From assembly GCF_963676685.1 (NCBI RefSeq), contig NC_092352.1, positions 77,314,001-77,378,000 of the forward strand: a DNA stretch of 64,000 nucleotides, written 5' to 3'. Shown here piece after piece: positions 7,720-62,335 of this stretch. The notes under the pieces were generated by a model. It was given only the letters and a program-made list of their open reading frames with translations. It had not been told where the DNA came from and made no database searches. This DNA comes from Mytilus edulis. Taxonomy: Eukaryota. A program made the translations under genes and the position numbers. The first letter of the stretch is position 1; each line of letters opens with the position of its first letter.

Positions 7720-8166
7720 TAAAAGAGGTCGATAAATACCAGAGGGAAAGTCACACTCATAGATGGAAAATATACTGACAATGCCATGGCTAAAAATGAA
7801 AAGACAAACAGGCAAACAATAGTACAGAAAATACAACATAGAAAACTTAAGACTAAGCAACATGAACCGCACCAAAAACTGGGGGTGATTTCAGGTGCTC
7901 CGTAAGGGTAAGCAGATCCTTGTCCACATGTGGCACCCATCGTGTTGCTTTTATTATTACAAATCCGGTAAATAGTCCTAATCGGTAGTCACATTCATGA
8001 GAAGGGAAGGGTATTGTAGTTACGACGTAAGGAACATATCCGACATCGTCTGTGAAACGGTTATTCTATAATGGTAAACCAACTCGTGATGGCGTCCGTA
8101 AAATTTACGAAGGGATCATTTCAACTTCACCATTTGAAACTCTTGGTTTAATAGCTTCCTTGTGAG
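7720..8166 (-). mobile_element. Penelope-like element family 2, 3' end (ORF tail plus 3' UTR)
   Basis: Reverse strand LTRKLLNQEFQMVKLK*SLRKFYGRHHELV..MFLTS*; further 3'-end copies at 31530-31740(+), 58963-59140(+) and 61965-62002. Confidence 0.75.
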
Positions 8167-8870: not shown

Positions 8871-9791
8871 TTAAGATACGGCTGTCGAATTAGTCGCATC
8901 CGTAACAGAATTGTTATTCAGGCGTTTACAAATAAGATATTGACGATACTTCTTAATCCGTAAGACGTAGATAACTGGATCTACAACAGAATTTAACAAA
9001 AGAAAAAAAGTTGTTGAATATCAATGTGAGAGCACCTGTTATAACCGATTTATTCCCCATGTACAAAAAGAACACAAGCACACTTCGTGGTAGAACTGCC
9101 ACTAAAGAAACAGCAATTATCAAACCCACTGTAACTGCATTTTTACGTGTTCTTATAGTATTAGCCTTCTTCTTGGCGACCTGGCTCTCAGTCATACTAC
9201 TGGCTTGAAGAACATTATGCGAACTAATCATCCTGTATACTATAATCCCGTAACAAGAAATTATAGCAACAACAATACATAAACAAGGAATGTCATGTGA
9301 AAATAACAACAGTGCAGTAGTGATGTTTTTAGGTTCACATGGTACTGGTCCATCGACAGTTGCCATACCAAATCTCAACAAAGCAATGCAGTGACTTACA
9401 TGAAATAAAGTAAAACACCTTTATTGCTGGATACAAAGACCAAAATTCCGTTCTGTGTTGTGAATGTAGCATTTAGTCGTTCGATGTATATCATGAGAGA
9501 TCATCAAGAGATGACATTATTGTTCCACCAATCAGATGTTGAATCATCAAACACTGGTATTGGAATGTAACACCTTTAGAGTTCATAAAAACTAATATAG
9601 TGTGATAAATGTATTCCAGACCCAATGCGCTGTCACTGAGACTAGTACATTGACAATACTAAGAAACGGCTCTTTTTTAATTCCTTTGAAGTAGTCGATA
9701 CGTATATGGAACAACCATGAAACAATAACATTCCAGTAACAATTACAAAGTTTGCTATCTTTATACTTTGCCACATGTTTAGTTATTTCAT
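8871..9791 (-). pseudogene. Full-length frameshifted class A GPCR pseudogene
   Basis: Colinear with 36367-37290; indels at ~9005, ~9397, ~9500 and ~9645. Confidence 0.9.
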
Positions 9792-12742: not shown

Positions 12743-13460
12743 ATACCAACCATTACGATAACGTACGATTGTCCATGTTTCCTGTGTAAAATGTCAACAA
12801 CCTCTAAATGAGTTTTACTAAAGATCTTGAAAACCGAACATCTGTCCTTTTCTTTGTTTACTATTTTTGTTTTTTTTTCCGATTTTAACATTTTATGGAA
12901 CATTAAGGTAAGTTAGTTGGTCTTTGGATGAACTTAATCTTATCACATCTTATTGTTATAAATAATGAACAGTAACGAATATCAACCTTTACCATGTTTA
13001 CGATAACGAACGATTGTCCATGTTTCCTGTGTAAAATGTCAACAACCTCCAAATGAGTTTTACAAAAGATCTTGAAAGAAGCGGAAACCGAACATCTGTC
13101 CTTTTCTTTGTTTACTATTTTTGTTTTTTTTCCGATTTTAACATTTTATGAGAAACATTAAGGTAAACGAACTGTTAGTTGGTCTTTGGATGAACTCAAT
13201 CTTATCACATCTTATTGTTATAAATAATGAACAGTAACGAATACCAACCTTTACGATAACGAACGATTGTCCATATTTCCTGTGTAAAATGTCAACAACC
13301 TCCAAATGAGTTTTACTAAAGATCTTGAAAGAAGCGGAAACTGAACATCTGTCCTTTTCTTTGTTTACTATTTTTTTATCAGATATATGTTTCGCTCTTT
13401 TTTCTCCTCGATTTTAACATTTTACGAGAAACATTAAGGTAAACGAACTGTTATAACCAT
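12743..13460. repeat. ~250-260-bp tandem triplication upstream of the GPCR pseudogene
   Basis: gttagttggtctttggatgaact at 12913 and 13174; cgattgtccatRtttcctgtg occurs three times. Confidence 0.8.
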
Positions 13461-16125: not shown

Positions 16126-17561
16126 ATAAAATTGAGAAAGGAAATGGTGAATATGTCAAAGCGACAACCCCCCGACCATAGAGCAAACAACAGCCGAAGG
16201 CAACCAATGGGTCTTCAATGTAGCGAGAATTCCCGCACCCGTAGGTGTCCTTCAGCTGGCCCCTAAAATATGCATAATAGTACAGTGATAATGGACGTCA
16301 TACTAAACTCCGAATTATACACAAGAAACTAAAATTTAAAATCATACAAGACTAACAAAGGCCAGAGGCTCCTGACTTGGGACAGGCGCAAAATTGCGGC
16401 GGGGTTAAACATGTTTATGAGATCTCAACCCTCCCCCTATACCTCTAGCCAATGTAGAAAAGTAAAACAATAACAATACGCACATTAAAATTCAGTTAAA
16501 GAGAAGTCCGAGTCTGATGTCAAAAGATGTAACAAAAGAAAATAAATAAAATGACAATAATACATAAATAACAACAGACTACTAGCAGTTAACTGACATG
16601 CCAGCTCCAGACCTCAATTAAACTGATTGAAAGATTATGTCTTCATCATATGAATATCAGGTACAATCCCTCCCGTTAGGGGTTTAGTATCATACTATCA
16701 TAAAATATATGAGAAGAACATAACCCGTGTCATGCCAACAACTGTTTTTTTTAAGAAATAAATGTGTTTAGTTCCGATGCAAAGACCCTATCAGTGAATC
16801 AATGTTAAAGCCAAAATATGCAATCTTTAATGACCTGACAACAGTATCGTAACTATATCCCCTTTTAATAAGTCTATTTAAAGGTTTTGTTAGTTTCTGA
16901 GGAGAATATTGACATTTTTGTGCTTTATAAAGAATATTTCCATAAAATTTTGGATGTGAAATACCTGAACGTATAAGATGTCTGCATGTTGAGTTATATT
17001 TACGAATTATTTCCTTATACCGGTGATAAAATTTAGTAAATGTTTTGACCAGTTTGTGATATCGAAAACCCTGGTGTAATAATTTTTCAGTAATACATAA
17101 ATTTCTCTCGCTAAAATCTAATACATTGTTACATACACGAGCGAATCGTACAAGTTGAGATATATAAACACCATAAGATGGTGACAAGGGAACGTCACCA
17201 TCTAAAAATGGATAATTAACAATAGGAAATGAAAAATCATCTCTTTTATCATATATTTTTGTATTAAGCTTCCCGTTTATGATATAGATATCAAGATCGA
17301 GGAAAGGGCAGTGGTCATTGTTTTCATTAGCTTTATTTAAAGTAAGTTCTACAGGATAAATTTCTTTAGTATACATACTGAAGTCGTCATTATTTAGAGC
17401 CAATATATCATCCAAATATCTAAAAGTATTGTTAAATTTTTGTATCAAATGTTGTTTTGATGGGTCTTTGCTAATTTTAGTCATAAATTGTAACTCATAA
17501 CAATACAAAAACAGGTCCGCAATAAGTGGTGCACAGTTAGTCCCCATTGGAATTCCAATAA
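16126..17561 (-). mobile_element. Penelope-like element family 1, young 5'-truncated copy; RT C-half ORF 16768-17561, no C-terminal GIY-YIG
   Basis: GIPMGTNCAPLIADLFL, RYLDD, PFLDL, YDKRDDF and YGVYISQLVRFARVC are uninterrupted; empty site at ~41785-41800. Confidence 0.92.
16360..16450 (-). ncRNA. Candidate type-P5 twister ribozyme in the PLE 3' UTR
   Basis: GGCUAGAGGU-AUA-GGGG-G-A-GGG...UAA-CCCC-GC-CGCA(AUUU)UGCG-CCUG-UCCCAAGU-CAGG-A-GCCUCUGGCC; P2, P3, P4, P5, T1 and T2 all pair. Confidence 0.8.
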
Positions 17562-17624
17562 TTGCTATCATATACAGATATGAACACTAAGTCTTATAAT
17601 GGTACTTAATATTGGCTTTAAATT

Positions 17625-20600: not shown

Positions 20601-22320
20601 TTTGTTTCTGTGTGTGTTACTTTTTAGTGTTGTGTCGTTGTGTTGTGTTTCCCTTGGTTTTAGTTTTGTAACCTGGACTTTTTTTTCTCAAGCGATATAT
20701 GAATTTCAAACAGCGGTATACATGTACGACTGTTGCCTTTATTTACCCTATCGAAGCACCAAGTCTCGGTCCGGATCCTCTTGTCGTTCATGCGATTCCT
20801 TTAGATTTGCATCATATATCGGTCCGGATCCTCTTGCAATTCATGAAATTACTTCAGATTTTTTTTCTTAATTCCTCTCAACCAATCGGCTTATGAGATT
20901 TGAACAATCATGGTTAATTGCTGTCGCTTTCCAATTTACATTTTTTAACCATGTGTTGTACGTTGTTGCTCGTTGTTGTCTGTACGTGAGTTCTTTTGAA
21001 GATATGAGAAGCTGGTGGTTGATGTGATAAGTTATTTTATAACAAATTTTCTTTGGACGAATGGCAGAACTTACAATGTGTATGGCAACACTGCCGTTTG
21101 CATAAGAGCTATCAACGGAAATTCAACTTAAATTGATCAGCCAATGACAGAACCACAATCACAGCGTTATTTAAGACACATACCTAGCGATTACTCTCAA
21201 ATAGTAAATTCGTTTTAGTTTAAACATATTTATTCATCATCAACACAAATATATCATCATACAAAATACACAATAATAATAGGATTCGGAAACAAGCTAT
21301 ATTTAGCTTATATTAGTCCGTTTCCTTGAAATACCAACTCCAGTTAACTATTACATAAATATAGCATGCAATGTTACTATGATATGGAACAAAAATAAAC
21401 TAAGTAACTATATAACAAAAAAAAGAAAGGAGAAAAAAACTCATTTTAAAATAAGGAAAATAAATACAACCAAAGAAGAAAAAAAAGAAAACTACACCAA
21501 AATACTACACACATGTTTAGATGAAATGCAACTTAGGTGAGAATAGTGAATAACAATTTAACTTGTAAATCTCTTGCACTTTAGTATTAATTTGACCTAC
21601 ATGACCTACTGGTACAATTAGTAATGCATTTGTGTTATTCAATCTTTCCCTGTTTTGTGTTATATCTCGTCTCACTCTTTCAACGTTCACCGCCTTTGAT
21701 AAGTATTTAGTATGATATTCACTTCTGTTCTCGTACTATGAACAACTAATTCCTTTATTCAAAATAAAACAAATCCGTAGTCAATGTATTCCTTATTATA
21801 AGATTATAACATTTATCTCAATATTTGTATAGCTAGTTTCGCCTTATATAATTAATGATATAACTGTTCTTAAAACAACACTTACATTACTTTAATAGTT
21901 GATGAAAAATTTAGAAACGTTCAACATATCTAACTTGAACGGCTGTTGAATTAGTCATATCCAAAACTGTATTGTTCTTCAGACATTTACAACGAAGATA
22001 TTGACGGTACTTCTTGATCCGTAAGACATAGATAACTAGATCTATTACAGGATTTAACAACAGAAAAATGTTGTTGAAGATGATTGTGAGAGTACCTGTT
22101 AAAGCAGATTTGTTCCCCATGTTATAATAGAACACACGAATACTTCGAGGTAGAACTGCCACTAAAGATACAGAAATTATCAAACCCAGTGTAACTGCAT
22201 TACTACGTGTTCTGATATCCTTAGCCTTCTTCTTGACGACCTGGCTCTCTGTCATTCTACTTCCGTGAACCAAACTTTGCGAACGAATCATCCTATATAC
22301 TACAACACCGTAACAGGAAA
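17625..22320 (+). repeat. Near-identical direct segmental duplicate of ~41860-46640
   Basis: Line-by-line identity, including the duplicated 72-aa and 89-aa spurious ORFs. Confidence 0.95.
20266..20745 (+). mobile_element. Penelope-like family 3 degenerate 3' end (duplicate at ~44497-45055)
   Basis: SSNIPSVPSYGVYISQLIRYA. Confidence 0.7.
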
Positions 22321-22840
22321 TGATTGCAACAACAATAAATAAGCAAGGTATGTCATGTGAAAATAACAACAATGTAGTAGTAGTGTTTTTAGGATCACAT
22401 GGTACTGGTCCGTCGATTGTTGCCATACCAAATCTCAACAAAGCAATACAGTGACTTAGTATGAAATAAAGTAAAACGCCTTTATTGCTGCATACAATGA
22501 CCAATATTCCTTTCTTTGTAGAAAATGTAGTATTCAGTCGTTCAATGCATATCAATAAAGTCTGTATAAGAGATGACATTATTGTTCCGCCAACTAGATG
22601 TTGAATTATCAAACACTGGTATTGGGATGATACGCCTTGTGAGTTCATAAAAACTAGAATACTATGATAAATTAATTCCAGACCCAATGCGATGTCGCTT
22701 AGACTAAGGTACATTGCCAATACCAAGAAACGATTCTTCTTTAATTCCTTTGACGTAGTCGATACGTATATGGAACAACCATGGAATAATAACATTGTAG
22801 TGACAATTACAAAGTGTGCTATCTTTATACTTTGCCACAT
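21911..22840 (-). CDS. Intronless class A (rhodopsin-like) orphan GPCR, 309 aa
   Basis: 7 hydrophobic segments; TM2 LSLSD; TM3 ICIERL; TM7 NPVIDLVIY (DPxxY altered to DLxxY); basic helix 8. Confidence 0.88.
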   Translation of the reverse strand: MWQSIKIAHFVIVTTMLLFHGCSIYVSTTSKELKKNRFLVLAMYLSLSDIALGLELIYHSILVFMNSQGVSSQYQCLIIQHLVGGTIMSSLIQTLLICIERLNTTFSTKKGILVIVCSNKGVLLYFILSHCIALLRFGMATIDGPVPCDPKNTTTTLLLFSHDIPCLFIVVAIISCYGVVVYRMIRSQSLVHGSRMTESQVVKKKAKDIRTRSNAVTLGLIISVSLVAVLPRSIRVFYYNMGNKSALTGTLTIIFNNIFLLLNPVIDLVIYVLRIKKYRQYLRCKCLKNNTVLDMTNSTAVQVRYVERF

Positions 22841-23250
22841 GTTTAGTCATTCCATGTACAACTACTGTATTCAATTAGCATAAGCAAAGGTAGACACAAT
22901 TAATGTCAGCTATTATATACCTTACCCCTCATGAATATTCATTAAACAAGTTTTTTTTATAGATAAAGGCAACAGTAGTATACCGCTGTTCAAAACTCAT
23001 AAATCCATGGACAAAAAACAAAATCGGGATAACAAACTAAAACCGAGGGAAACGCATTAAATATAAGAGGAGAACAACGACATAACACTAAAATGTAACA
23101 CACATAGACAAAATCCCACGAGACTACTTTAGATATTAGGTATTCTTTAATGTAGTTGGTCTTTGGATGAAGTTAATCTAATCACATCTTATTGCTATAA
23201 ATAATGAACAGTAATAAATACCAACCATTACGTTAACGAACGATTGTCCA

Positions 23251-28509: not shown

Positions 28510-28575
28510 TGTCTCAAGGCCGATGATATAGCAGATGCTTTAGTATATGCACTAAGTGCTCCAGCACATGCCCAG
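28510..28575 (+). pseudogene. DHRS11: DHRS11-like short-chain dehydrogenase, penultimate exon (CLKADDIADALVYALSAPAHAQ)
   Basis: 66-nt phase-0 exon, tttttcAG...CAG|GTTAGT; resembles DHRS11 CLKPEDVAEAVIYVLSTPAHIQ. Confidence 0.8.
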
Positions 28576-30100
28576 GTTAGTAGTCTATGTCTTAAGTGCT
28601 CCATCCAATGCTAAGGTTAGTAGTCTATCCCTTAAGTGCTCCATCCAATGCTAAGGTTAGTAGTCTATGCCTTAAGTGCTCCATCACATACTCAGGCTAG
28701 TTGTATATGCCTTAAGTGCTCCATCACATGCTCTGGTTTGTAGTATATGCCTTAAGTGCTCCATCACATGCTCTGGTTTGTAGTATATGCCTTAATGCTC
28801 CATCACATGCTCAACCTTAGTAGTATAAACCTTAAGTGCTCCATCACATGCTTAGGTTAGTAGTCTATGCCTTTAGAGCTCCAGTTCATGGTCAGCTTAG
28901 TAGTCTATGCCTTTAGTGCGCCAGCACATGCTCAACTTAGTAGTCTATGCCTCAAATGCTCTATCTCATTCTCAGGTTAGTAGTATTATTATGTCTTAAG
29001 TGCTCCAACATAGGCCCAAGTTAGTAGTATATGCTTTAAGTGCTCCATGACATTCTCAGATTATTAGTCTATGCATTAAGTACTCCATTGAATGCTCAGC
29101 TTAGTAGTCTTTGTCTTAAGTGCTCCATCACATGCTTTGTTTTGTTGTATATACCTTAAGTGTTCATCACATGTTGAGGTTAGAAGTCTATGCCTTAAGT
29201 GTTCATTACATGATCAGGCTAGTTGTCTATGTCTTAAGTGCTCCATCAAAAGCTCAGGCTAGTTGTTTATGTCTTAACTGCTTCATCAAATGCCCAGCTT
29301 AGTAGACTATGCATAAAGTGCTTAATCACATACTCAGCTTAGTAGTCTATGCCTTAAACGTCCATGACATCCTCAGATTATTAGTCTATGCTTTAAATGT
29401 CATCTAATGCTCAGGCTAGTAGTGTTTGCCTTACGTGCTTCATCAAATGCTCACATTAGAAGTCTACGCTTTAAGTGCTCCATCACATGCTCAGGTTAGT
29501 AGTATATGCCTTAAGTTCTCCATGACTTCCTCAGATTATTAGTCTATGCATTAAAAGCCTATCACATGCTCAGGCTAGTTGTATATGTCTTAGACATGCT
29601 CATGTTAGTAGTATATGCCTTAAGTGCTCATCACATGCTCAGGCTAGTTGTTTATGTTTTAAGTGCTCCATGACATGCTCAGGTTAGTAGTATATGCCTT
29701 AAGTGCTCCATCACATGCTCTGGTTTGTAGTGTATGCCTTAAGTGATCCATCACATGCTCAGCTTTAGTGGTCTATGCCTTAAGTGCTCCATCACATTCT
29801 CAGGTTAGTAGTCTATGCCTTTAGTGCTCCAGCAAATACTCAGCTTAGTAGTCTATGCCTTAAGTGCCTCATCAGCTTAGTAGTCTATGCCTCAAGTGCT
29901 CTACCTTATGCTCATGTTAGTAGTCTATGCCTTAAGTGCTCCTGCACAGGCTCAAGTTAGTAGTATATGCCTTAAATGCTCAATGACTTCCTCAGATTAT
30001 TAGTCTATGTATTAAGTGCTCATCACATGCTCAGGCTAGTTGTCTATGTCTTAGACATGCTCATGTTAGTACTCTATGCTTAAAATGCTCCAGCACATGA
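28540..30100 (+). repeat. 40-bp tandem satellite (~39 units) derived from the exon end plus splice donor
   Basis: Unit gttagtagtctatgccttaagtgctccatcacatgctcag; aggttag at 28574, 28614 and 28654. Confidence 0.95.
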
Positions 30101-31461: not shown

Positions 31462-31947
31462 TTTGTGTCTTCAACTTTTAAATTTATAATAATACAATTT
31501 CCACATTAATTGTTATTTTCATTATTTACCATGTGGAGTAGGATCTGCTTACCATTCCGGGGCACCTGAGATCACCCCTAGTTTTTGGTGGGGTTCGTGT
31601 TGTTTATTCTTTAGTTTTCTATGTTGTGTCATGTGTACTATTGTTGTTTGTTTGTCTTTTTCATTTTTAGCCATGGCGTTGTCAGTTTATTTTCGATATA
31701 TAAGTTTGACTGTCCCTTTGGTATCTTCTGTTCCTCTTTTCTTGCTCTTGCCATTTTTTTTTATATTATTTATATGCTAACATTTAAACAGCTTAGTACA
31801 TTGAACAAAATTAATTAGGTATTAACATTTATATTTAACAATCAAAGCAGTTATTGTTACATTTTTAAAGAAACAGAATGTTAGAACGTTGCTATTATTT
31901 TAACTGTAAACAAGCACATTTCATAAATTAACTGTTTTTATTAATTA

Positions 31948-33660: not shown

Positions 33661-36127
33661 ACTTTATAAAACAAAATAACCGAACTCCAAATAAAATTCA
33701 AATCGTAAAGCCACTTATCAAGTGACAAAATCAAAAGCACAAATACATCAAAAATATTGAAAACACCTGTCATATTCCTGACCAGGTACAGACATTTTCT
33801 TGTGTAGAAAATGGTGGTTTAAACCTGGTTTTATAGCTAGCTAAATATCTAACGTGTATGGCAGTCACATACAACTATGTAAATATAACTTAATGACATA
33901 ACAATGCTTAAATTCTGAAATTCAAATTTTGCAAACAAGCCAAATATAACCGAGTTATGGTTACAAAGAAAATATTTTTTGTGGATTTTGTTATATGTGC
34001 AAAATTGATTTGATTAACCTATTTTCATTAGACGACAATAACCTTAGCAACAGAGTTCGGTCATTGTGGCCTCAGATGTCTAGATCATGTCGATGTTGAA
34101 AGAGATTTTAGCCGGAGATCTATATATTGGATTAATGTATTTTTTAAATATATTTGTTTTGAAAAATTTCTTGTTTACTCATAGATAAAAACTGTAATTG
34201 TTCTATTTCAAAGATGTTGATACAGAGGCAAATTAGAAATGCCGGGTAAAGTTGGTATATGTACAAATTATCAGGTTGTCTGCATATTGATATTGTAAAA
34301 TATCAGTTTCGAGTCGCATTATGAAGCTTTTTGTCGAGTGAGCGCACCGAACGAGTTCAAAAATCCTTCATTATGTGTCGAGCAGTTGACAGTTTACATT
34401 ATCTTACTTCCTATACTTTTCTAGGAATATGATAGGTGAAAAGGGTCCGCGTGGAGACCGTGTATGTTCCATATTAGGTGTGGAGGGAGACTTATTTCAA
34501 TACCGGTTACGACTTTGGCCCAATTTGATTATTTAAATGTATTGAAAGTTCTGCTGACTATTGTTATATCTAAGTTGTTGATATTCAATTGTTGACATTA
34601 CGTTTTTGTGCAGACCAATGGAAGTAGGTTCTTACAATGTAACACTTGAACACTTTAATATCAAGATAAGAAGATTTGTATGATTGAAAATGAGACAACT
34701 CTTGTCTAAATTTAACAAATAAAAATAGTCGGCAAGATAAATTCGTTACATAGTGTATGTGCTAGTGACAAAATACGATATATATATATACGCTTTGCTC
34801 TCATCCTATATTGAATTCACTGACCCCGTATATATGTCGTATTAGGTAACTAACGCACTATGTGACTGCTAATATCATTATGCAGATAACCTGATAATCG
34901 TTTTATCGGGCTGTATTTGCGTCTTTTTGAAGTGTTTTCATTGTTTCGTCAGCAAACCAGAAGATGACTTGATTCGAGTCAATCTTATCAACGTCAGTTT
35001 AAACATTGTGACGTCGCTGATACGTACGGCTCAAAGTTAATGAGGCCGGGTCAATGTATTTGACGTCGCAAAGCCGTGATATGCAATTTTATTACAAGAG
35101 CTGAGCTGAGTGATATAGACAGTTGGACGACCGATAAAAAACTAATGGTATCAAATACATCATGGTTTTTTTTGTCAACACTGCAAGAATGCAATTTTTG
35201 TTTGTAGAATATATCTAATATCTAATATTCATCTGATATCTGATATACATTTAATAACTAAAACCATCTGGTATCTAATTAATATCTGATATCCAATAAA
35301 CATCTTTTTATACTAAGTATCTTAAGGATGTCAATAAGTAAAGTGAACGGACAAGAAGTGGCCTTATCGACCATCCCCTCCATGAACAGGTTTGAATTCA
35401 CGCTACACTCACTCAAAATGTTAATAAGAATTAATGCATTTTCATTAAGATATTTCGAGTAACTTTTATAAATAAACCTTGCAGTTATTTTCCAGAAAAA
35501 AACCGAACTGAAAGTTCTGAACCTTAGATTATGAATGTCTTTATGTTTTTTAGTTTAAGAAGTAAACTTTAATTATAAATTTTACTTTGTCTTTGGTTTT
35601 TTTCACAATTTTTTATGACTACCCGTATTTTTGTTTGTATTTGTTTTATTGTACATTGTATTTTCTACCCATACGCTAATTAAATGCTTACACGCATTTC
35701 AAAATTTTATGCCGACGTAATAGTTTTTACGTATCAAACACTATAAAAGTGTTATCATCACTGCCTGATCGATATCCTTGCTATTGTAAATACGTTAATG
35801 TCCGTTTCTTCTACTTGTCTTTTTCATTACCTTTTTTTACCTTTGGATTAATATGGTTATGGCTTCATCAAAGACATTGAATTCTAAAAAAAATGGAACG
35901 TGTGATTTCTTTATTCTAAATTAAAGACAACAATAAATATCATACTAACCTACTAATAATCTAAACATACTGAGTCTATCTAGAGTTTTAAGCCAGGTAT
36001 ACCTGCAAATACTGTTTGAATATATTTGAATTATTGAAAGACAACACGTATACATCTTTACATAGTTGATGAAACATTGTGAAACGTTCAACATTTGTTT
36101 CACTGATATAAAGTTAACCTGGACATT

Positions 36128-36366: not shown

Positions 36367-37290
36367 TTAATGTACGGCTGTCGAATTAGTCGCGTCCGTA
36401 ACAGAATTGTTTTTCAGACATTTACACAGAAGATATTGACGGTACTTCTTAATCCGTAAGACGTAGATTACGGGATCTACTACAGGATTTAACAACAGAA
36501 AAAAGTTGTTGAATATCAATGCGAGAGTACCTGTTATAGCAGATGTGGTCCCCACGTACACAGAGAACACAAGCATAGTTCGTGGTAGAACTGACACTAA
36601 AGATACAGCAATTATCAAACCCAGTGTGACTGCATTTCTACGTGTTCTGATATCCTTAGCCTTCTTCTTGGCGACCTGGCTCTCAGTCATACTACTTGAT
36701 TGAAGAACATTTTGCGAACGAATCATCCTGTATATTACAAAACCGTAACAAGAAATTATTGCTACAACAATACATAAGCAAGGAATGTCATGTGAAAAAA
36801 ACCCCAGTGTAGTAGTAGTGTTTTTAGGGTCACATGGTACTGGTCCATCGATTGTTGCCATACCAAATCTCAAGAAAGCAATACAGTGACAAAGTATGAA
36901 ATATAGTAAAACTCCTTTATTGGTGCATACTAAGACCAATAGTCCTTTCTGTGTTGTAAATGTAGCATTTAGTCGGTCGATGCATATCAATAAAGTATGT
37001 ATAAGAGATGACATTACTGTTCCACCAATCAGATGTTGAATCATCAAACACTGGTATTGGAATGTAACACCTTGAGAGTTCACAAAAACTAAAATACTGT
37101 GATAAATGTACTCCAGACCCAATACGCTGTCACTGAGACTAAGGTACATTGACAATACTAAGAAACGGCTTTTTTTTAATTCTTTTGAAGTAGTCGATAC
37201 GTATATGGAACAACCATGCAACAATAACATTCCAGTAACAATTAAAAAATTTACTATCTTTATACTTTGCCACATGTTTAGTTTTTTCAT
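36367..37290 (-). CDS. Intronless class A orphan GPCR (~307 aa)
   Basis: First ATG at 37290 (the ORF track starts at a TTG); LSLSD, ICIDRL, NPVVDPVIY. Confidence 0.92.
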   Translation of the reverse strand: MKKLNMWQSIKIVNFLIVTGMLLLHGCSIYVSTTSKELKKSRFLVLSMYLSLSDSVLGLEYIYHSILVFVNSQGVTFQYQCLMIQHLIGGTVMSSLIHTLLICIDRLNATFTTQKGLLVLVCTNKGVLLYFILCHCIAFLRFGMATIDGPVPCDPKNTTTTLGFFSHDIPCLCIVVAIISCYGFVIYRMIRSQNVLQSSSMTESQVAKKKAKDIRTRRNAVTLGLIIAVSLVSVLPRTMLVFSVYVGTTSAITGTLALIFNNFFLLLNPVVDPVIYVLRIKKYRQYLLCKCLKNNSVTDATNSTAVH

Positions 37291-37834
37291 GTACAACTAT
37301 TGTATCTAATAAATATATGAAAAGGTTCACGCAATTAATATCAGCTATTATATACCTTAACTCCTCATGAATATTAATTAAACAAGTTGTTTTATAGACT
37401 ACATATATAGCTACATGAGTTATAATGTATTCTTTATTCTGAGTGGGTCTTTGGATGACCTTAATCTAATCACATCTTATTTTAACATTTAATGAGAAAC
37501 ATTAAGCTAAGGTAAACGAACTGTTATAACCACGCAAATACGAAAGCAAACAGTCCAATATTGTCTCAATATTGGTAAATGAACTGTTATAAACACAAAA
37601 GAGGCGCAAAAAATAACAGATGGACTATAAATCTCATAGATCTACTAAAAAATACCCAAAAGATGTAGATTGTTCGACTCCTTGTTGATGTGTAGATTGA
37701 CTAAGCTGAATTAGGCATACCTTTTCGGATTTTGAGCTATAAATGCTCGTTTTCTTAGTAGTATTAAAAAGATTCGACTTAAATACCACTGATGAATCAA
37801 TTATGGACTAAACGTGCTGAATAAATAGCTTTTG

Positions 37835-38134
37835 AGATCTCATAAACATGTTTAACCCCGCCGCAATTTTGCGCCTGTCCCAAGTCAGGAGCCTCTGGCC
37901 TTTGTTAGTCTTGTATGATTTTAAATTTTAGTTTCTTGTGTATAATTCGGAGTTTAGTATGACGTCCATTATCACTGTACTATTATGCATATTTTAGGGG
38001 CCAGCTGAAGGACACCTACGGGTGCGGGAATTCTCGCTACATTGAAGACCCATTGGTTGCCTTCGGCTGTTGTTTGCTCTATGGTCGGGTGGTTGTCGCT
38101 TTGACATATTCACCATTTCCTTTCTCAATTTTAT
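37835..38134 (+). mobile_element. Penelope-like family 1, 300-bp 3'-end insertion
   Basis: Near-identical reverse complement of 16126-16425; tttg duplicated at the ends; empty site at ~13761. Confidence 0.88.
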
Positions 38135-39622: not shown

Positions 39623-39953
39623 AGTTATCAAAGGTACCAGGATTATAATTTAGTACACTAGACGCGCGTTTCGTCTACATAAGACTCATCAGTGACGCTC
39701 ATATCAAAATATTTATAAAGTACAAAGTTGAAGAGCATTGAAGATCATAAATTCCAAAAAGTTGTGCTAAATACGGCTAAGGTAATATATGCCCGGGATA
39801 AGAAAATGCTTAGTTTTTCGAAAAATTCATAGTTTTGTAAACAGGAATATTATAAAAATGACCACATTATTGATATTCATTTCAACACCGAAGTGTTGAC
39901 TACTGGGCTGGTGATACCCTCTGGGACAAACGTCCACCAGTAGTGGCATCATG
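39623..39953 (-). mobile_element. Retrozyme-like 331-nt insertion with 8-bp TSD
   Basis: ataatatt at 39615-39622 and 39954-39961; empty paralog at ~15470-15500. Confidence 0.8.
39655..39698 (-). ncRNA. Minimal type-I hammerhead ribozyme (core intact, stem I weakened)
   Basis: GCGUCA-CUGAUGA-GUCU(UAUGU)AGAC-GAAA-CGCGCG-UC-UAGUGU. Confidence 0.8.
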
Positions 39954-46227: not shown

Positions 46228-47157
46228 TTAGAAACGTTCAACATATCTAACTTGAACGGCTGTTGAATTAGTCATGTCAAAAACTGTATTGTTCTTCAGA
46301 CATTTACAACGAAGATATTGACGGTACTTCTTGATCCGTAAGACATAGATAACTGGATCTATTACAGGATTTAACAACAGAAAAATGTTGTTGAAGATGA
46401 TTGTGAGAGTACCTGTTAAAGCAGATTTGTTCCCCATGTTATAATAGAACACAAGAATACTTCGAGGTAGAACTGCCACTAAAGATACAGAAATTATCAA
46501 ACCCAGTGTAACTACATTTTTACGTGTTCTGATATCCTTAGCCTTCTTCTTGACGACCTGGCTCTCTGTCATTCTACTTCCGTGAACAAAACTTCGCGAA
46601 CGAATCATTCTATATACTACAACACCGTAACAGGAAATGATTGCAACAACAATACATAAGCAAGGAATGTCATGTGAAAACAACAACCGTGTAGAAGTAG
46701 TGCTTTTAGGGTCACATGGTACTGGTCCATCGATTGTTGCCATACCAAATCTCAACAAAACAATGCAGTGACTTAATATGAAATAAAGTAACACGCCTTT
46801 ATTGCTGCATACAAAGACCAATATACCTTTCTGTGTAGTATATGTAGCATTCAGTCGTTCGATGCATTTCAATAAAATCTGTATAAGAGATGACATCACT
46901 GTTCCGCCAACTAGATGTTGAATTAGCAAACACTGGTATTGGAATGTAACGACTTGTGAGTTCATAAAAACTAGAATATTATGATAAATGAATTCCAGAC
47001 CCAATGCGCTGTCGCTTAGACTAAGGTACATTGCCAATACCAAGAAACGGTTCTTCTTTAATTCATTTGTGGTAGTCGATACGTATATGGAACAACCATG
47101 GACCAATAACATTGTAGTAACAATTACAAAGTTTGCTATCCTTATACTTTGCCACAT
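46228..47157 (-). CDS. Intronless class A orphan GPCR, 309 aa
   Basis: LSLSD, KCIERL, NPVIDPVIY; open frame. Confidence 0.9.
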   Translation of the reverse strand: MWQSIRIANFVIVTTMLLVHGCSIYVSTTTNELKKNRFLVLAMYLSLSDSALGLEFIYHNILVFMNSQVVTFQYQCLLIQHLVGGTVMSSLIQILLKCIERLNATYTTQKGILVFVCSNKGVLLYFILSHCIVLLRFGMATIDGPVPCDPKSTTSTRLLFSHDIPCLCIVVAIISCYGVVVYRMIRSRSFVHGSRMTESQVVKKKAKDIRTRKNVVTLGLIISVSLVAVLPRSILVFYYNMGNKSALTGTLTIIFNNIFLLLNPVIDPVIYVLRIKKYRQYLRCKCLKNNTVFDMTNSTAVQVRYVERF

Positions 47158-48174
47158 GTTCAGTTATTTCACGTACAACTATTGTATTCAACTGATCTTA
47201 GCAGAAGAAGACGAAATGGATATAAACGCCTTTATATCTTTACCCTTATAAAAAAGTCATTAAAGGTCTTCTACAGACAACTTGACTTTTAATGAAATAT
47301 TTATTTGTAGTTGGTTCAACTGGATCTTCACCTAAAAATAAATTTATCTAAACATGTTGTAATAATGGCGATGTAATTAATTCCTTTAAACAGTTAACAG
47401 AATGATTGTGCATTATTCCTGTTTCCAATTTCAAAAACAAAGAGTGGTAAAGGTAAAAATTGATCGTCGACAAAAACAATTTGGCTTTCAGTACGTCTGA
47501 TTAAATTAGCAGTGTTACGTAAATTATAATTCCTTGGTCTATCAAATCTCGGGTTTCACAACCTTTATATTACCTAATACTTTTTTACTATGTTTAGCTT
47601 CGATATATCAAATGAAAATGCGGGTTACTCATCAATAAATTTATACACATTTTACACACACAAAATGTACACAAAAATGACAAGTTGGCTGAATTTACTT
47701 GCATGCAATATTTCAAACATCGAAAAAAGACAGGCATTATGTTTGTAAACCATATATTATTATTATTATGTAAAAAATCTACACGAAAAATCTGTCTGTT
47801 TGTGACATAAATTTTTATCAATGTGTTAAACCTGGTCTGTTAATTAGTCTGTTAAGAGTTATGAATTGCAATAAACATATAATTTGATTGATATATGGGG
47901 TGTTATCGGAAAAAATGGGTATGCTCAAGATAAGTGGTTAACTCATACGGAAACAACACATGATAAATGAAACACAAATTAAAGCAATGGAAATTTAAAA
48001 TTGATAAAAAAAAAAATCAAAAAGTGATATATTAAAGTAATTTCTATTTAATCCAAGAATAGTCGCATATATTATGTGAATTCTGTTTTATGGCATGAAT
48101 GACACAAATTCATCATCTACATTGGTAACAAGTATATAAATCAGAGATAATGAAATCAACGGTACCAATTTTCT

Positions 48175-49960: not shown

Positions 49961-51055
49961 GATATGGCAACTTTCCACATAACTCAAAATACCTGAAGAT
50001 ATATATTCTTAAGCAAGATGTATGTAGACATATAAAAAATCCAAAATTTAAATTTAAAGATCACACGAAGATCAACAGAATTGAATTTCAATGATCAATT
50101 TTTGATTTTTCTTTATATTGACCGCTACTATCATCAATTTACTACCGATAATGCCAATCGCGAAAGACAAATTCGAAGTGGAATTCAAACGCATTAGTTG
50201 AAATTCCACCCAAAATGCAAGGCCACAAAAAACAAAAAAAAACAATAGACAAACAGCGGTCAAAATAGTGCTGACTACTGTGCTGGTGATACTTTCGGGA
50301 ACGTCCACACTCAGTGACATTGACACCTTGATTGTTGCACGAAAAATTAACGTTTCGTCTACATACGATGTTACTTGTAAGTGATATGTGAGGTCATTTG
50401 ATCACGCTTGCACTCAACTGTAAAATAAACAAATTCTACTGAAAATGTTATTGACAATAGCTATCAAATGAATATTTTTTTCTGTATTCTTTATTAGTTG
50501 ATTATCGATTTCTCTGTCAAATTAAAAACGTGTGGATAGTAACTGGTTAAAACCCCAGATTTGAAAGACCAAGGCAATATAGTTTCCGTAAAACAGCTTA
50601 TTCAATCCGAATACTCAGGTTACTGCATACGGGAAAAGCATGCCGGAAATTGTTGACTGGAAGGAAGCAGTTAAAAGATTAAATTCCTTCTACATTTGAA
50701 AAAATAAAAAAATGTCTTCAGTCTTCAGAAAAAAGTTTATGTATATAAGTTTCATTATAAAATTTAAAACTAGCCATTTAGAAATAAAGAAACATGCGCC
50801 TTATTTTTAACTTGAAATTTCACATGACTTTTATTAGGGTGTTTATACCATTTCAATTTTTATTAGTAACAATAAAATATTATTACATCAAGATCCAGTT
50901 CTACCAATGCCCAGCTACAGATGAATATTTCATTATAAATCACGTTGTCTATTGAAGACATTGTTATGGCTTTTCATTAAGGTTGAGGAATTTAATCGCT
51001 TAATATATCAATTGCGTATACTTCAGCTTAGATCAATTGATTATAATATTTGTAC

Positions 51056-51979
51056 ATGGAATTACTAAACATGTGGCAAAGTATAAAGATAGCAAATTTC
51101 GTAGTTGTCACTGCAATGCTATTGTTCCATGGTTGTTCCATATACGTTTCGACTACTTCAAAGGAATTAAAGAAGAACCGTTTCTTGGTATTGTCAATGT
51201 ACCTTAGTCTCAGTGACAGCGCATTGGGTCTGGAATTCATTTATCACAATATTTTAGTTTTTATGAACTCACAAGGCGTTACATTCCAATACCAGTGTTT
51301 GATGATTGTACATCTAGCTGGTGGAACAATAATGTCTTCTCTTATACAGACCTTATTGATATGCATCGAACGACTAAATGCCACATTCACAATACAGAAG
51401 GATATACTGGTCTTTGCATGCAGCAATAAAGGTGTTTTACTTTATTTCATACTTAGTCACTGCATTGCTTTGTTGAGATTTGGTATGGCAACAGTTGATG
51501 GACCAGTACCATGTGACCCTAAAAACACTGCTACTACTATATTGTTATTTTCGCATGACATTCCTTGCTTATGTATTGTTGTTGCTATAATTTCTTGTTA
51601 CGGTGTTGTAGTATACAGGATGATTCGTTCGCAAAACTTTGCTCAGGCAAGTAGTATGACGGATAGCCAGGTCGCCAAGAAAAAGGCTAATGCTATAAGA
51701 ACACGTAGAAATGCAGTTACACTGGGTTTGATAATTGCTGTAACTTTAGTTGCAGTTCTACCACGAAGTATGCTGGCGTTCTATTTTTACATGGGGAATA
51801 CATCTGCTATAACAGGTACTCTTATAATGATCATCAACAACTTTTTTATTTTGTTAAATCCTGTATTAGATCCAGTTATCTACGTTTTACGGATCAAGAA
51901 GTACCGTCAATATCTCCGTTGTAAATGTCTGAAAAAAAATGCTGTTTCGGATTTAACTAATTCGACAGCCGTATCTTAA
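51056..51979 (+). CDS. Intronless class A orphan GPCR (~307 aa)
   Basis: ATG at 51056; LSLSD, ICIERL, NPVLDPVIY. Confidence 0.92.
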   Translation: MELLNMWQSIKIANFVVVTAMLLFHGCSIYVSTTSKELKKNRFLVLSMYLSLSDSALGLEFIYHNILVFMNSQGVTFQYQCLMIVHLAGGTIMSSLIQTLLICIERLNATFTIQKDILVFACSNKGVLLYFILSHCIALLRFGMATVDGPVPCDPKNTATTILLFSHDIPCLCIVVAIISCYGVVVYRMIRSQNFAQASSMTDSQVAKKKANAIRTRRNAVTLGLIIAVTLVAVLPRSMLAFYFYMGNTSAITGTLIMIINNFFILLNPVLDPVIYVLRIKKYRQYLRCKCLKKNAVSDLTNSTAVS

Positions 51980-52980: not shown

Positions 52981-53510
52981 AAATAAAGGCAACAGTAGTA
53001 TACCGCTGTTCAAACTCATAAATCCATGGACAAAAAACAAAATCTGGGTAACAAACTAAAACTGAGGGAAACGCATTAAATGTAAGAGGAGAACAATGAA
53101 ACAACACTACAATGTAACACACACAGAAACGGACCAAGCAACAGACAACATCCCACGAGAATAACAAATATAACATCAAAACCAAATACATGAATCTGGG
53201 ATAGAAAAGTACCGTGACACGTCTTATCGAAATGTGAATTTACACTCAAAATTAAGAGAAAACAAACGACGCAACGTTAAAATGTAACACAAACGGAAAC
53301 GAACTATAATATAACAATGGCCATATTCCTGCCTTGGTACAGGACATTTTTAAAGAAAAAAATGGCGGGTTGAACCTGGTTTTGTGGCATGCCAAACCTC
53401 CCCTTTTATAGCCATGTGAAATATAACATTACGATGACAACTCAACACCACAGGACTACAATATAAATAAATTGGAGAATACAATTGACAAAGAAACACA
53501 CGAACAACAG
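52981..53510 (-). mobile_element. Retroelement 3' UTR (probably Penelope-like family 3) containing a variant twister-like fold at 53317-53415
   Basis: Shares its 3' end with 20600-20745 and 22964-23123. Confidence 0.7.
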
Positions 53511-54309: not shown

Positions 54310-54607
54310 AATACATGAATTTGGGATAGACAAGTACCATAACACGTCTTATAGTAATGTTGTAAAAATGTCCTTAGCTAGTTTGGTCAAAGATACATTG
54401 TATGGATCCACCAATTTGTGATGGTGTCCATAAAATTTACGGAGTGTCAATTTTAATCTGTCCTCCTCATAACTTTGTTGGAGCAGTTTCTGCGTAAGGA
54501 GAACACTCCTGTATATGAAGTCCGTATAGTGTGAACAAGCACGAGAATAACGTATCAATTGTGATATGTAAACACCATACGAAGGGGCAGAGGATATGTT
54601 ACTGCTG
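54310..54607 (-). mobile_element. Penelope-like family 3 ORF tail
   Basis: SSNISSAPSYGVYISQLIRYSRAC..LRKFYGHH. Confidence 0.8.
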
Positions 54608-55415
54608 TTATAGCGTGTTGCATTAGCATTTTTGTATTTTCGTTTCATTTTGTCTGCAAATTTCTTTTTGTTTACTACGGCGCATCCTCAATGCTAGTTT
54701 GTTGTGATGTCTGACGTTATAAATCTAAATTTAGCAAGTTTTTTATAATCATTATGACGGTTTATATATATATATGAATAAAAAAATGATGCAAATAGAT
54801 TGAAAAATTTTCTTAACGTAAAAAAAAATGTCAAGATAAAAAAGGTGCATTTAATTGGATTACTCAAAATATCAATAAACAATAAGTACGTAATTAATTA
54901 TTATACATGTTGCATCATAAATGTTAACCAAGTCGGCCTACCTAACCTAGGAAAAATATGTAGACATGGGTACTTCTTAATGTATTTGTAATTTAGGTTT
55001 TAGACAGGGTATATACTGCGACATTCCAGGGTTAGGACTTATATCCCCTTCGTCTTGAGCTCCGGCGATATAAACTCTAAGCCGGACATTGCACAGTATA
55101 TACATGATATACCCTGTCTAAGACCTGAATGTTCTTTTACTGTGTTTGCATGTAATACCAAATAAAACAATCTCCAATTCTAAATTGTCACATTGATAAA
55201 TTAAAAATTATTTCAATGAAACATTTAGATGGATAGTATCGAATATTATTGTATAGCAATATAATATTTCCAACAGAAAGTAACCAAAAGTTAGCGTGCA
55301 ATAAATTCTAATATTGCACTAGTGCAATAAATCATCAAAATTCATGACGTCATCAACGAAAAATCTTAGTTTAAACCATTTTTTACTTTCAAATATTATA
55401 TTACTATACAATAAA

Positions 55416-56530: not shown

Positions 56531-56949
56531 AAAAAAAAAAAAAGAAGATGTGGTATGATTGCCAATGAGACAACTATCCACAAAAGACCAAAATGACACA
56601 GACATTAACAACTATAGGTCAACGTACGGTCTTCAACAATGAGCAAATCCCATACCGCATAGTCAGTTATAAAAGGCCCCGATAAGACAATGTAAAACAA
56701 TTCAAACGAGAAAACTAACGGCCTTATTTATGTAAAAAAAATGAACGAAAAACAAATATGTAACACATAAACATATAAACAAACGACAACCACTGAATTA
56801 CAGGCTCCTGACTTGGGACAGGCACATACATAAATAATGTGGCGGGGTTAAACATGTTAGCGGGATCCCAACCCTCCCCCTAACCTGGGACAGTGGTATA
56901 ACAGTACAACATAAGAACGAATTATAAAAATCAGTTGAAAAAGGCTTAA
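56531..56949 (-). mobile_element. Retroelement 3'-end insertion, TSD catatata
   Basis: catatata at 56523-56530 and 56950-56957; same family as 24150-24360. Confidence 0.8.
56789..56897 (-). ncRNA. Candidate type-P5 twister ribozyme, second family
   Basis: CAGGU-UA-GGGG-G-A-GGG...UAA-CCCC-GC-CACAU..AUGUG-CCUG-UCCCAAGU-CAGG-A-GCCUG; P3 and P5 differ in sequence from 16360-16450 yet still pair. Confidence 0.8.
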
Positions 56950-57344
56950 CATATATATTTGATGTTCATGTCAACACTGAAGTGGTGACTAACCACCGAA
57001 TGAAAACGAACACGTAAAACAAATGCCTGGGATAATTTTTTCTAAAAATTCAAGTTTTGTAAACAGGCAATTTATAAAAATGACCATATGATAGATATTC
57101 ATGTCAACACCGAAGTGCTGACTAATGGGCTGGTGATACGCACTCGGGAACATGCGGATCAGCATCCGCTGAACTAGCAGACCTTACAATGTTTGTTATT
57201 CTTGAAAACATTTTACAACGCTTTAAACATAGACACAAAATGATTATGATTTCCAGATTGAGGGATGACGGCTGGATCATATGTAGGACTCGGAACCGCG
57301 TTGGTACTCTGAACCGCGATGGTCGCGCTGAAGTAAGATAGTCC

Positions 57345-58930: not shown

Positions 58931-61105
58931 ATAGAAACTAGAAAATATGATAATTAAACCTTATGAGATCACCCCTAGTTTTTTGTGGGGTTCGTGTTGT
59001 TTATTCTTTAGTTTTCTATGTTGTGTCATGTGTACTATTGTTTTTTCTGTTTGTCTTTTTCATTTTTAGCCATGACGTTGTCAGTTTGTTTTAGATTTAA
59101 TGAGTTTGACTGTCCCTTTGGTAACTTTCGTCCCTCTTTTATCTCAATAAACCCTGATTATAGCTTATAAAATACTTAAAATTTTACAAGGACTGTTATC
59201 AAAGAATTAGCGGGTAAAGTCTTCTCGATTTTTCAAAACACAATATGATACTAGTACTCAGTTCGCAAAATAAATATAATCAACTACTATTTTATCCAAA
59301 GACAACCGGTGTATTGTCCAATATAACATAAGAAATAAATTAAATAAGCATAAATAACACGCCAATATACAACTTATTGAGTCGACCACTGGTGAAACCG
59401 AACTCATGGATTTTCCCCAAACACGGCATAAATACCGGATCTATCATGCTCATGGGTGAGCTCGCATGCGTTTATTGAAATACATTCTTTTATCATCTCC
59501 AGTTGAAACCCCATTAAAAATCTAGGAATATGTTGCCTCATTGATTGAATAATATTTCTAAGACTAATCTGTGTCCACTGTCATTGTTAAAACCAAGTCA
59601 ATCAAATCAAATTTGTACATGTTACGTAAACAAAAGAAGATTTCATCGACACCATTTCTTAAATAATTCGTTTAATATTTTCCTTGTTTGCCCTTTTTAT
59701 ACTTGCAAAGTATTTGCTATTTGCTACTTCTGTTTTTAAAAAAGTCATATCATGTAATACAGCGATATTTACATAACTTATTGGGACTGTTATACAAGTG
59801 AGAGGTTGGCTAGCAAAAACATCAGGATAATGACAGTTGATTTCCATTCGTTTGATATGTCTGGCCTTGAAGTCATAACACTATCGAGTCGGTTTTTTTT
59901 AACTCGTACTCCAAAACCTACCAATCAAAACGTTGGATTTCATGTTTCGAGCATGATTTTTGTGCTCCAATCACTGAGCAAGGACTTCAGGCCCTGTGCT
60001 TTAGATTTTGCCATTTGATGACTTACGCCTTATTCTGCTTCTTAAAATGTATAACAAAAACTAAATAGAACTGCAATGTTAAATATAGCTGTTTATTCTA
60101 GATTTGTTTATTTAAATGAGCGATATACAATGTAAACTAACAGTAGCATTTACTAACTAAACATTAGAATACAATGTGTTCGTATATAATGATTATTTGT
60201 TTTATCGCCGGTATAAACAATGACCTAGAAAAGAGTGAGGAATGGTTATGATTTACTAGCTGTGTTCGTGTATAACAAAACATCATTATACGATTTATCA
60301 TTCATTTGGCCGAGTGTTCTTAGAAACATTTACACATAAAACAAATGGTATATCTATGAAAACATTGTTGTCATCGTTAGAGCACAAAAGTTAATATTGA
60401 AAGGAAACATAGATAACACATCAAACATTTATAGACTATGGATGTACACAGAGTACTACATCTAAAATAAACCCATATACATTTTTAGATGAGAATTTAA
60501 CTTTGAAAAAAAAGTGCAAAACCGAATATCAAACGAAATCTCCCAACATGCAGGCATACTAAATACAAATTCCATTGACGAACGACTGAAATCCTCACGT
60601 TTTTTGTTGCCATCAGAAATTGCTTGATCCTTAAACCATGTGTCGAAACCTACAAGACACTTTGTCATTTATTGCATGTCACCACTATCATCAATTCGAT
60701 ATAACCTGAAGCGCATGATAAGCTTTCGCTAACGACGCAGCCATTATCGCTCAATTTGGAGTTAATGCGATTCCATTCTTTTGTTCCGTGGCCCGATTAG
60801 CATATTGTGAATTAGTTTATGACATTTGAACATAATTTAACTAGAGTTGCATAGATAATAGAATTACATCATTCACTGTTTGAAGGTCATAAATCAATTG
60901 AGAGAAAACCAAGCCGGGTTACAAAATTTAAAAAAAAACCCGTAAAATACATCAACTATAAGAGAAAAAACAAACGAAAAACAGGAAAACTGAAGTAAAG
61001 AAAAAAGACCCTTAGAAAGACACTTTTCGATAACAGCTGTCATATTTTTGACATGAAATTTTTAGAAAAAATTATGGGTTGAACCTGGTTTGATGGCTTT
61101 ACAAA

Positions 61106-62335
61106 CCTTCATGTGCTGGAGCATTTAAGGCATAGACTACTAACCTGGGCATGTGTTTAAGCACTAACAACATAGACTACTAACTTGAGCCTGCGCTGGA
61201 GCACTTTATGCATAGACTGATAACCTGAGCATGTGCTAGAGCATTCAATGCATAGACTAATATCGCACGAGCATTTAATGAAGTACTTAAGACATAGACT
61301 ACCTATCTGAACATGTGCTGGAGCACATACGGCATAGCCTACTAACCTGAGCATATGTTTAAGCACTAACAACATAGACTACTAACTTGAGCCTGCGCTG
61401 GAGCACTTTATGCATAGACTGATAACCTGAGCATGTGCTAGAGCATTCAATGCATAGACTAATATCGCACGAGCATTTAATGAAGTACTTAAGACATAGA
61501 CTACTAACCTCGGTATGTGCGAGAGCACTTAATGCATAGACTGCTAGACGGAATATGTGCGTGAGCATTTTATACATGGCCTACTAACCTGAGCATGTGC
61601 TGGAGTACTTACGGCGCAGCCAACTAATCTGAACATGTGCTAGAGCACATAAGGCATAGACTACTAACCTGAGCTTGTGCTGGAGCAATTCAGAAAGGCT
61701 GCTAACCTGAGCATGTAAGAGAGCACTTAAGGCATAGACTATTAATCTGTGGATGTGATAAATCACTTTAGGTAAAGACTGCTAATCCGGGAATATGCTG
61801 GAGCACCTAATACATAAACTACCAACCTGAGCATTGACTGGAGAACGTAAGACATAGACTACTAACCTGAACATGTGCTGGAACACGTAAGGCATAGACT
61901 ACTAATCTGAGCATGTGATAGTGCACTTAAAACATAGCATTCTAACCTGATCATGTGCTGGAGCTGAGTTTGACTGTCCATCTGGTATCTTTCTCCCTAT
62001 TTTAAACATAGCCGACTAACCTGAGCATGTGCTGGAGCACTTAAGACATAGACTACTAACTCGGGCATGTGATGGAGCACTTAAGGCATAGACTACTAAC
62101 CTGGGCATTTGCTGGAGCACTTAATGCATAGACTTCTAACCCGGTACTGTGATGAACACTTAAGGCATAGACTACTAACCTCAACATGTGATGAACACTT
62201 AAGGCATAGACTACTAACATGAGCATGGGCTGGAGAACTGAAGGCATAAACTACTAACCTGAATAGTGCTTGAGCACTTAAAGGCATAGAATACTAACCT
62301 GGACATGTGGTGGAGCACTTAATGCGTATACTAAA
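61106..62335 (-). repeat. 40-bp exon-derived satellite, inverted paralog (~30 units, 202-bp higher-order repeat)
   Basis: Reverse complement of the 28540 unit; a block is repeated at a 202-bp offset within 61137-61500. Confidence 0.95.

Follow-up and report, generated by a model that had tools for sequence, protein, structure and literature searches.

A twister variant with palindromes in place of helix P1 in Naiad retrotransposons of Mytilus edulis, and a possible role for pairing between copies

On the minus strand of a 64-kb stretch of the Mytilus edulis genome (64,000 nt, called the window below), a short motif at position 56850 resembles a twister ribozyme in which helix P1 has been exchanged for self-complementary sequence. 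This raises the questions of whether the motif is a ribozyme, which element carries it, and what the palindromes are for. A first-pass annotation of the window had proposed that pairing between molecules or between tandem copies may gate cleavage, in analogy with double hammerheads.

The minus strand of 56790-56896 takes the fold of a type-P5 twister (Rfam RF02684). The Rfam alignment of a 201-nt slice spans the full Twister-P5 model, and its only unaligned part is the P1 segment. The score is 21.3 bits, below the gathering cut-off of 37.6, and the Rfam scan of the whole window and of 16 related loci returned no twister match. Read in the minus-strand direction, the copy opens with the 5' strand of P5 (56882-56896), which in the predicted fold pairs with 56790-56795 and 56801-56806 and which covaries between families. 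It is followed by the 3' strand of P2 (P2', GGGG, 56877-56880), the conserved GA (56875-56876), in which G56876 is the predicted general base by analogy with known twisters, the T1 strand GGG (56872-56874), which pairs with CCC in L4, a single U, palindrome A (U-GGGAUCCC-G, 56861-56870), a 2-nt spacer, and palindrome B (AACAUGUU, 56851-56858), which ends at position -2. Next comes the UAA (56848-56850), with a predicted cut at U56850^A56849, positioned according to Liu et al. 2021 (PMC8501958), and with A+1 as the predicted general acid. The 5' strand of P2 (CCCC) and the T2 strand GC(C) occupy 56841-56847 in the core alignment, and a weak P3 hairpin and P4 (CCUG/CAGG, loop UCCCAAGU) occupy 56807-56840, as placed by the Rfam alignment and the predicted fold, after which P5' closes the structure. 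The P2 3' strand, the GA and the UAA were likewise placed by the Rfam alignment.

No ordinary P1 can form in this copy. As the first-pass annotation had noted, nothing of the kind stands between the T1 strand and the UAA: the segment is unaligned in Rfam, and hairpins in this linker have energies of about 0 kcal/mol. When the linker is folded by itself, the energy lies between 0 and -2.6 kcal/mol in 21 of 22 representatives of the motif, and there is therefore no stable P1. As P1 has been reported to be dispensable, the motif is filed here as a variant and not as a plain type-P5 twister. The four palindromes described earlier lie at their assigned places (GGGATCCC at 56862-56869, GAGATCTC at 16419-16426, GGCATGCC at 53386-53393 and AGCTAGCT at 33835-33842), and on the minus strand AACAUGUU or AACC-A-GGUU comes after every one of them, with a (U/C)AA site next. 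Their self-complementarity stands, but the length of 8 nt has to be amended, as palindrome A usually measures 10 nt, in the 56850 copy by means of a terminal U-G wobble. In AACCAGGUU, the two 4-nt halves of the palindrome flank one unpaired central base (4+1+4).

The 22 representatives comprise 7 families from the M. edulis genome and 15 other records; one locus with a mutated T1 strand (L012) was left out. The GA before the T1 strand is found in 21 of the 22, together with (N)AA at the cut site. Of the 22 representatives, 21 retain the predicted catalytic bases, namely A+1, A+2 and the G of the GA, against a background of varying stems. T1 forms all three pairs in 15 of 21 representatives and occurs in five Watson-Crick types (GGG/CCC, GGU/ACC, AGG/CCU, GAG/CUC and GGA/UCC), and T2 is paired in 20 of 21 (AC/GU, GC/GU, CC/GG), so that both pseudoknots of the twister fold are present. 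P4 forms four of four pairs in 18 of 21, in several sequence forms; in the pairing counts the script mis-located P4 of representative E, a mutated copy. The P5 duplex is present in most representatives. P2 has four of four pairs in the 56850 copy and 1-3 pairs in other families, several of which form only two of three; it is weak in some abundant ones. Judged from its sequence, the motif is genuine, strongly conserved and a new form of a known ribozyme, with predicted cutting activity, and it is very probably a twister-type cutter.

The motif is abundant. Two short cut-site patterns have 10,784 and 11,102 exact matches in the 1.37-Gb genome, and a profile restricted to the 3' half found 137 matches at E <=1 in 1.264 Mb, made up of the window and stretches sampled at even spacing. 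For the family of the 56850 copy, a pattern that fixes only the flanks has 2,639 genome matches, and among the 100 of these that were listed, 39 carry a linker identical to that copy letter for letter. A search of viral contigs found no relative.

The earlier observation that the palindrome persists while its sequence changes is borne out by covariation, both among the 22 representatives and within family F. In palindrome A the three innermost pairs are Watson-Crick in all 22, with the dyad taken as the best-scoring centre within a few positions, a procedure that a single random linker would pass about once in ten by the author's estimate. The innermost pair takes all four forms (AT 5, TA 5, CG 7, GC 5) and, on a 16-lineage RT tree with several weakly supported deep nodes, must have changed 8 times or more, with the symmetry kept at each change. 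Family F copies are otherwise near-identical in context, and 99 of them were counted by eye (100 listed of 1,947 matches, one excluded as belonging to another family): the centre is AT in 53, TA in 39, GC in 2, and non-palindromic in 5 (AA 2, TG 2, CT 1). In the outer pairs of palindrome A, the representatives show U-G five times versus A-C once, and sense RNA is therefore favoured.

Palindrome B covaries as well, often with a central mismatch, and is imperfect in five single copies. Its forms include AACAUGUU, AACUAGUU, AACCGGUU, AAACGUUU, AAGAUCUU, AUCC-A-GGAU, AACU-A-AGUU and AAUC-U-GAUU. Palindrome A begins at the T1 strand and palindrome B ends at -1 or -2, adjoining the cut site, with a dyad-to-dyad spacing of 10-13 nt in 19 of 22 representatives. 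When each linker was shuffled 2000 times, two equally good palindromes arose with p<=0.005 in 14 of the 22 and <=0.05 in 17; the remaining five were not significant. Predicted self-duplex energies range from -11 to -21 kcal/mol for palindrome A and from -1.5 to -12.5 for palindrome B, with hairpins near zero; in the 56850 copy, the values are -18.0 kcal/mol for the self-dimer of A versus -0.8 for its hairpin, and -7.4 for the self-dimer of B. A covarying palindrome thus replaces a helix adjacent to the core, as in the dimer-activated (double-hammerhead) class.

The element that carries the twister is, by its coding sequence, a Naiad Penelope-like retrotransposon. Four of the 12 long family A loci (L142, L143, L145, L149) contain a frame of 1008 residues in which four TGA codons occupy cysteine-type positions and an N-terminal GIY-YIG domain, a KR block, CxC, GPKY and DKA precede a terminal RT. 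The diagnostic features of Naiads in the available text of Craig et al. 2021 (PMC8557442) are GIY-YIG, a KR block, CxC, GxKF/Y, DKA and a C-terminal RT. Naiad protein features were also seen in L213, L215, L220, L295 and L302. The family A twister lies about 330 nt past the stop codon. For the A2 family, to which the 56850 copy belongs, the link is provided by the RT only: a sense Naiad RT ends about 390 nt upstream in 4 of 27 copies and extends up to residues 255-1012 in L380. A Pfam search with four RT fragments gave nothing informative.

RT alignment yielded 79 and 27 loci from two collections. In 29 loci, the 620 nt downstream of the RT were read by eye: 13 contain a whole twister (one without GA), one is cut by the contig end, 5 have a different motif and 10 have neither. 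Of these last 10, two carry a twister at a greater distance and two break off within 260 nt. Both 5' truncation and partial tandem repeats, as expected of Naiads, were found. In partial tandems, another twister precedes the ORF on its 5' side; it is complete in one of the 12 long family A loci and partial in two. Tandems with at least two complete twisters occur in L149 and in L295-L301, where they form full arrays; most inserted copies have no tandem partner. The element resembles the Naiads of Craig et al. 2021 (PMC8557442) in domain order, 5' truncation, partial tandems, SECIS and in-frame TGA codons at cysteine positions. It differs in its 3' tail: for those Naiads the available text reports no canonical hammerhead, whereas here the tail contains a twister fold.

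Two further observations concern the Naiads themselves. The Naiad frames of L142, L143, L145, L149, L213, L215, L220 and L295 contain 3-7 in-frame TGA codons, of which several fall on cysteine positions, and a SECIS follows their stop, as also in the window at 16647-16711; selenoprotein Naiads thus extend past the clam and spider families published in 2021. Naiads, including full tandem arrays, also occur inside bacterial-labelled records (L294-L301, L292, L293, L302, L305), likely as animal DNA contamination.

At least 10 related copies lie within the window. The 56850 copy is a 5'-truncated solo copy of about 413 bp (56538-56950, minus strand), the 3' end of Naiad family 'A2'; it shares 93-95% identity with its closest copies and has no same-family partner in the window. 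A family A twister at 16355-16449 (minus strand; palindrome A 16418-16427, palindrome B 16407-16416) belongs with the C-terminal part of a Naiad reverse transcriptase at 16768-17586 (minus strand; GIPMG, RYLDD, YDKRDD). The SECIS-like element at 16647-16711 (minus strand) lies between the RT stop and this twister; it scores 30.9 bits with Rfam SECIS_1 (cut-off 35), and its relatives score 42.8 and 39.3 bits. The family B twister at 53312-53410 (minus strand; palindrome A 53385-53394, palindrome B 53373-53381) has an RT remnant upstream at 54349-54687 (minus strand). A decayed family C copy at 33776-33845 (minus strand; palindrome A 33834-33843, palindrome B 33822-33830) lacks the GA-T1 strand and has a mutated P4 loop. 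A second family A Naiad remnant spans 10648-12744 (minus strand), with a twister near 10889-10950 whose palindrome A is mutated, and a family A fragment on the plus strand (37832-38131) starts just before palindrome A. The window also contains a weak Rfam type I hammerhead match at 39655-39698 (minus strand; 26.6 bits, below cut-off), clustered intronless ORFs of about 310 residues (21911-22846, 36367-37296, 46228-47163, 51047-51979 and 8953-9420) that look membrane-bound and receptor-like by eye, a segmental duplication of 17.7-22.9 kb versus 41.9-47.2 kb (24.2-kb spacing, 96-100% identity), and a 40-bp satellite in two arrays of opposite orientation (28541-30090 and 61110-62333).

Sister Naiads end in a different conserved RNA fold, seen in the window at about 7850-7980 (minus strand), 31530-31672 (plus) and 58964-59071 (plus), and in L224, L225, L226, L228, L232, L233, L234 and L080. 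The Naiad identity of these lineages is indicated by GIY-YIG or DKA in L224, L225 and L232. The fold comprises a basal stem, a GGGUG/CACC(U) pairing, a covarying 10-nt palindrome, a conserved CUUAC...UCCGGAG core, and a strongly covarying 5-bp stem that apparently crosses the GGGUG/CACC(U) pairing. Its palindromes include CCACAUGUGG, CCACUAGUGG, CCGUAUACGG, UUGCAUGCAA, UCUAUAUAGA and UCGCAUGCGA, and 55 pattern matches were found for the motif. Rfam returned no ribozyme family for four of these loci. An HDV-like assignment was rejected, since the order of the covarying stems differs and none of the Rfam ribozyme families matched. The motif could be an unrecognised ribozyme or a protein-binding signal.

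What, then, do the palindromes of the twister pair with? The partner is most simply another strand, because the adjacent innermost bases of palindrome A covary though they cannot pair with each other in a hairpin. The pairing between molecules or tandem copies suggested in the first-pass annotation is accordingly well supported by compensatory changes at bases flanking the dyad, which are unpairable within one strand, and the hammerhead analogy proves closer than was known at that stage, because the host is itself a Penelope-like element. From this covariation, pairing between two RNA copies is strongly inferred and can be held with considerable confidence. Given such pairing and a twister-type cutter, it is somewhat more probable than not that the pairing materially controls cutting. 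The best explanation as a whole, about evenly balanced on the sequence evidence, is that P1 has been replaced by palindromes that pair with a second copy and supply the helices for efficient cutting. Several points weigh against it: RNA reads and truncation points give no signal at the cut site, few of the long family A loci have an upstream twister, P2 is weak in some families, P1 is reported to be dispensable in type-P1 twisters, and the sister Naiads keep a covarying palindrome in a fold that is not a twister.

In this proposal, the predicted ribozyme would cleave at U^AA, and A would pair with A and B with B of the other copy in one two-fold symmetric dimer, an arrangement suggested by the start of A at T1, the end of B at -1 or -2 and the 10-13 nt between centres. 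Each core would thereby gain helices where P1 would attach. In monomer folds, the first half of B or the cut site often ties up the T1 strand (pseudoknots lie outside the folding program), and pairing of B in trans could free it. Full pairing of both helices would, by structural reasoning, interlock two closed loops, and would be easier before the core closes or after cutting. The natural partner may be the other repeat in a partial-tandem transcript, in which case tandems would be the main source of excised unit-length element RNA, as has been proposed for Penelope hammerheads. The folding energies of dimers are no more than suggestive. In only 11 of the 22 representatives did the predicted dimerisation energy exceed that of all 12 controls with shuffled linkers, and the result is weak because strand-swapped dimers also form with shuffled linkers.

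Other readings of the palindromes have to be weighed against this one. The most serious, a tentative alternative with a minor share of the probability, is that the twister cuts as a monomer and the palindromes serve as a signal for RNA-RNA pairing in a different step, for example by joining tandem repeats or the two ends of the unit RNA ahead of ligation, template switching or priming. Once cleavage has occurred, they would sit at the extreme 3' end of the upstream product, where terminal pairing would avoid interlocked loops. In the accessible part of McKinley 2024, imperfect P1 is reported to have no effect and P1 to be dispensable in type-P1 twisters, the focus of that study, whose supplements include bivalve twisters; in Liu et al. 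2021 (PMC8501958), as far as its text was available, cleavage without P1 is inefficient. The different 3' fold of the sister Naiads also carries a covarying palindrome, which suggests that the need for pairing may be independent of twister catalysis. What a free-standing pairing signal would not need is the placement observed: both palindromes are flush with the attachment points of P1, at near-constant spacing, on both sides of the deepest split of the RT tree. It is improbable that the motif derives from a twister but no longer cuts, serving as a folded, dimerising recognition element for the Naiad protein. The score below the Rfam cut-off and the weak P2 of abundant families fit that reading, as does the lack of a cut signal in vivo. 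In four RNA runs, no read-end pile-up or cut-site joint was found among the rows listed, such libraries being poor at these ends; reads cover both strands of the element, and over the ORF one run shows a strand bias. Points of 5' truncation show no peak at A+1 (12 matches versus 10 and 92 at two control positions), and the break points spread from about -17 to +20 around the cut site by eye. Against it, A+1, A+2 and the G of the GA are kept although the stems vary, and about 94% of the natural type-P1 twisters assayed in McKinley 2024 are active despite imperfections, according to the part consulted.

Less probable still is that the symmetry does not reflect RNA pairing at all and marks a DNA site for a dimeric protein or a by-product of the correction of near-palindromes by template switching. 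Palindromes with an odd centre, such as AACC-N-GGTT, are characteristic of sites bound by proteins, and symmetry can be restored by template switching even where there is no selection. Against both, the sequence changes freely, even within family F, the U-G wobbles favour sense RNA, and the position of the palindrome is locked to the ribozyme core in many lineages. Already disfavoured, and very unlikely indeed, is the reading that palindrome A folds back within one molecule into a short P1 hairpin closed by a loop of four bases. Three base pairs could form in this way, and pairs with the T1 strand or UU/AA pairs can extend the hairpin in monomer folds; but the supposed loop is complementary to itself in all 22 representatives, in which the innermost pair occurs in all four types, the hairpin energies are near zero, and the end of the hairpin would lie about 11 nt from the cut site.

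The palindrome-paired twister can be compared with several known systems. With the type-P5 twister (RF02684), it shares the order P2'-GA-T1...UAA-P2-T2-P4/L4, the conserved core bases and both pseudoknots; it differs in its two tandem palindromes without a P1 hairpin, long P5, variable P3 and Penelope-like host. Penelope hammerheads with a palindromic helix III cleave as dimers and not as monomers, according to the accessible text of Cervera and de la Pena 2014 (PMC4209133) and Weinberg 2019 (PMC6765202). As described there, these dimeric minimal hammerheads have in common with the twister a ribozyme in terminal repeats, a palindrome for a helix near the cut site, and tandems. Unlike the twister, they are of another ribozyme class with one tiny loop instead of two palindromes of 6-12 nt, and they form strand-swapped cores, whereas side-by-side helices appear probable here. 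The T-variant twisters of the Schistosoma Perere-3 LINE are also tied to a retrotransposon and have a variable or missing P1, but they stand at the 5' end of the LINE, where the target site contributes to P1, unlike the tail twister of Naiads (Liu et al. 2021, PMC8501958, in its available parts). The words palindrome and dimer are absent from that paper. No further twister permutations are reported in the available text of Eckert 2023, and hammerheads alone are treated in that of Li 2026. A literature search, which largely covered journals outside subscription, found nothing that links twisters to Naiads or describes palindromic or dimeric twisters.

A more far-reaching version, and a doubtful one, is that this is the first natural obligate-dimer twister, symmetric, possibly interlinked and cutting only in tandem transcripts, and that Penelope-like elements have converged on a palindrome as tandem sensor in three unrelated folds, namely hammerhead, twister and the third motif, which may be a new ribozyme.

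More than 20,000 near-intact copies in one genome score below the Rfam cut-off, so that the abundance of animal twisters is likely undercounted. If the pairing proposal is true, a twister regulated by pairing between copies would represent a new mode of control for a much-used ribozyme, and the natural palindrome variants offer ready-made orthogonal pairs. Naiads dominate many bivalve genomes. In the parts of Craig 2021 (PMC8557442) available, they are used to argue that Penelope-like elements need no ribozyme and that hammerheads may be mere parasites. A conserved twister at the same position would reverse this argument, and it likely fills the ribozyme gap in Naiads.
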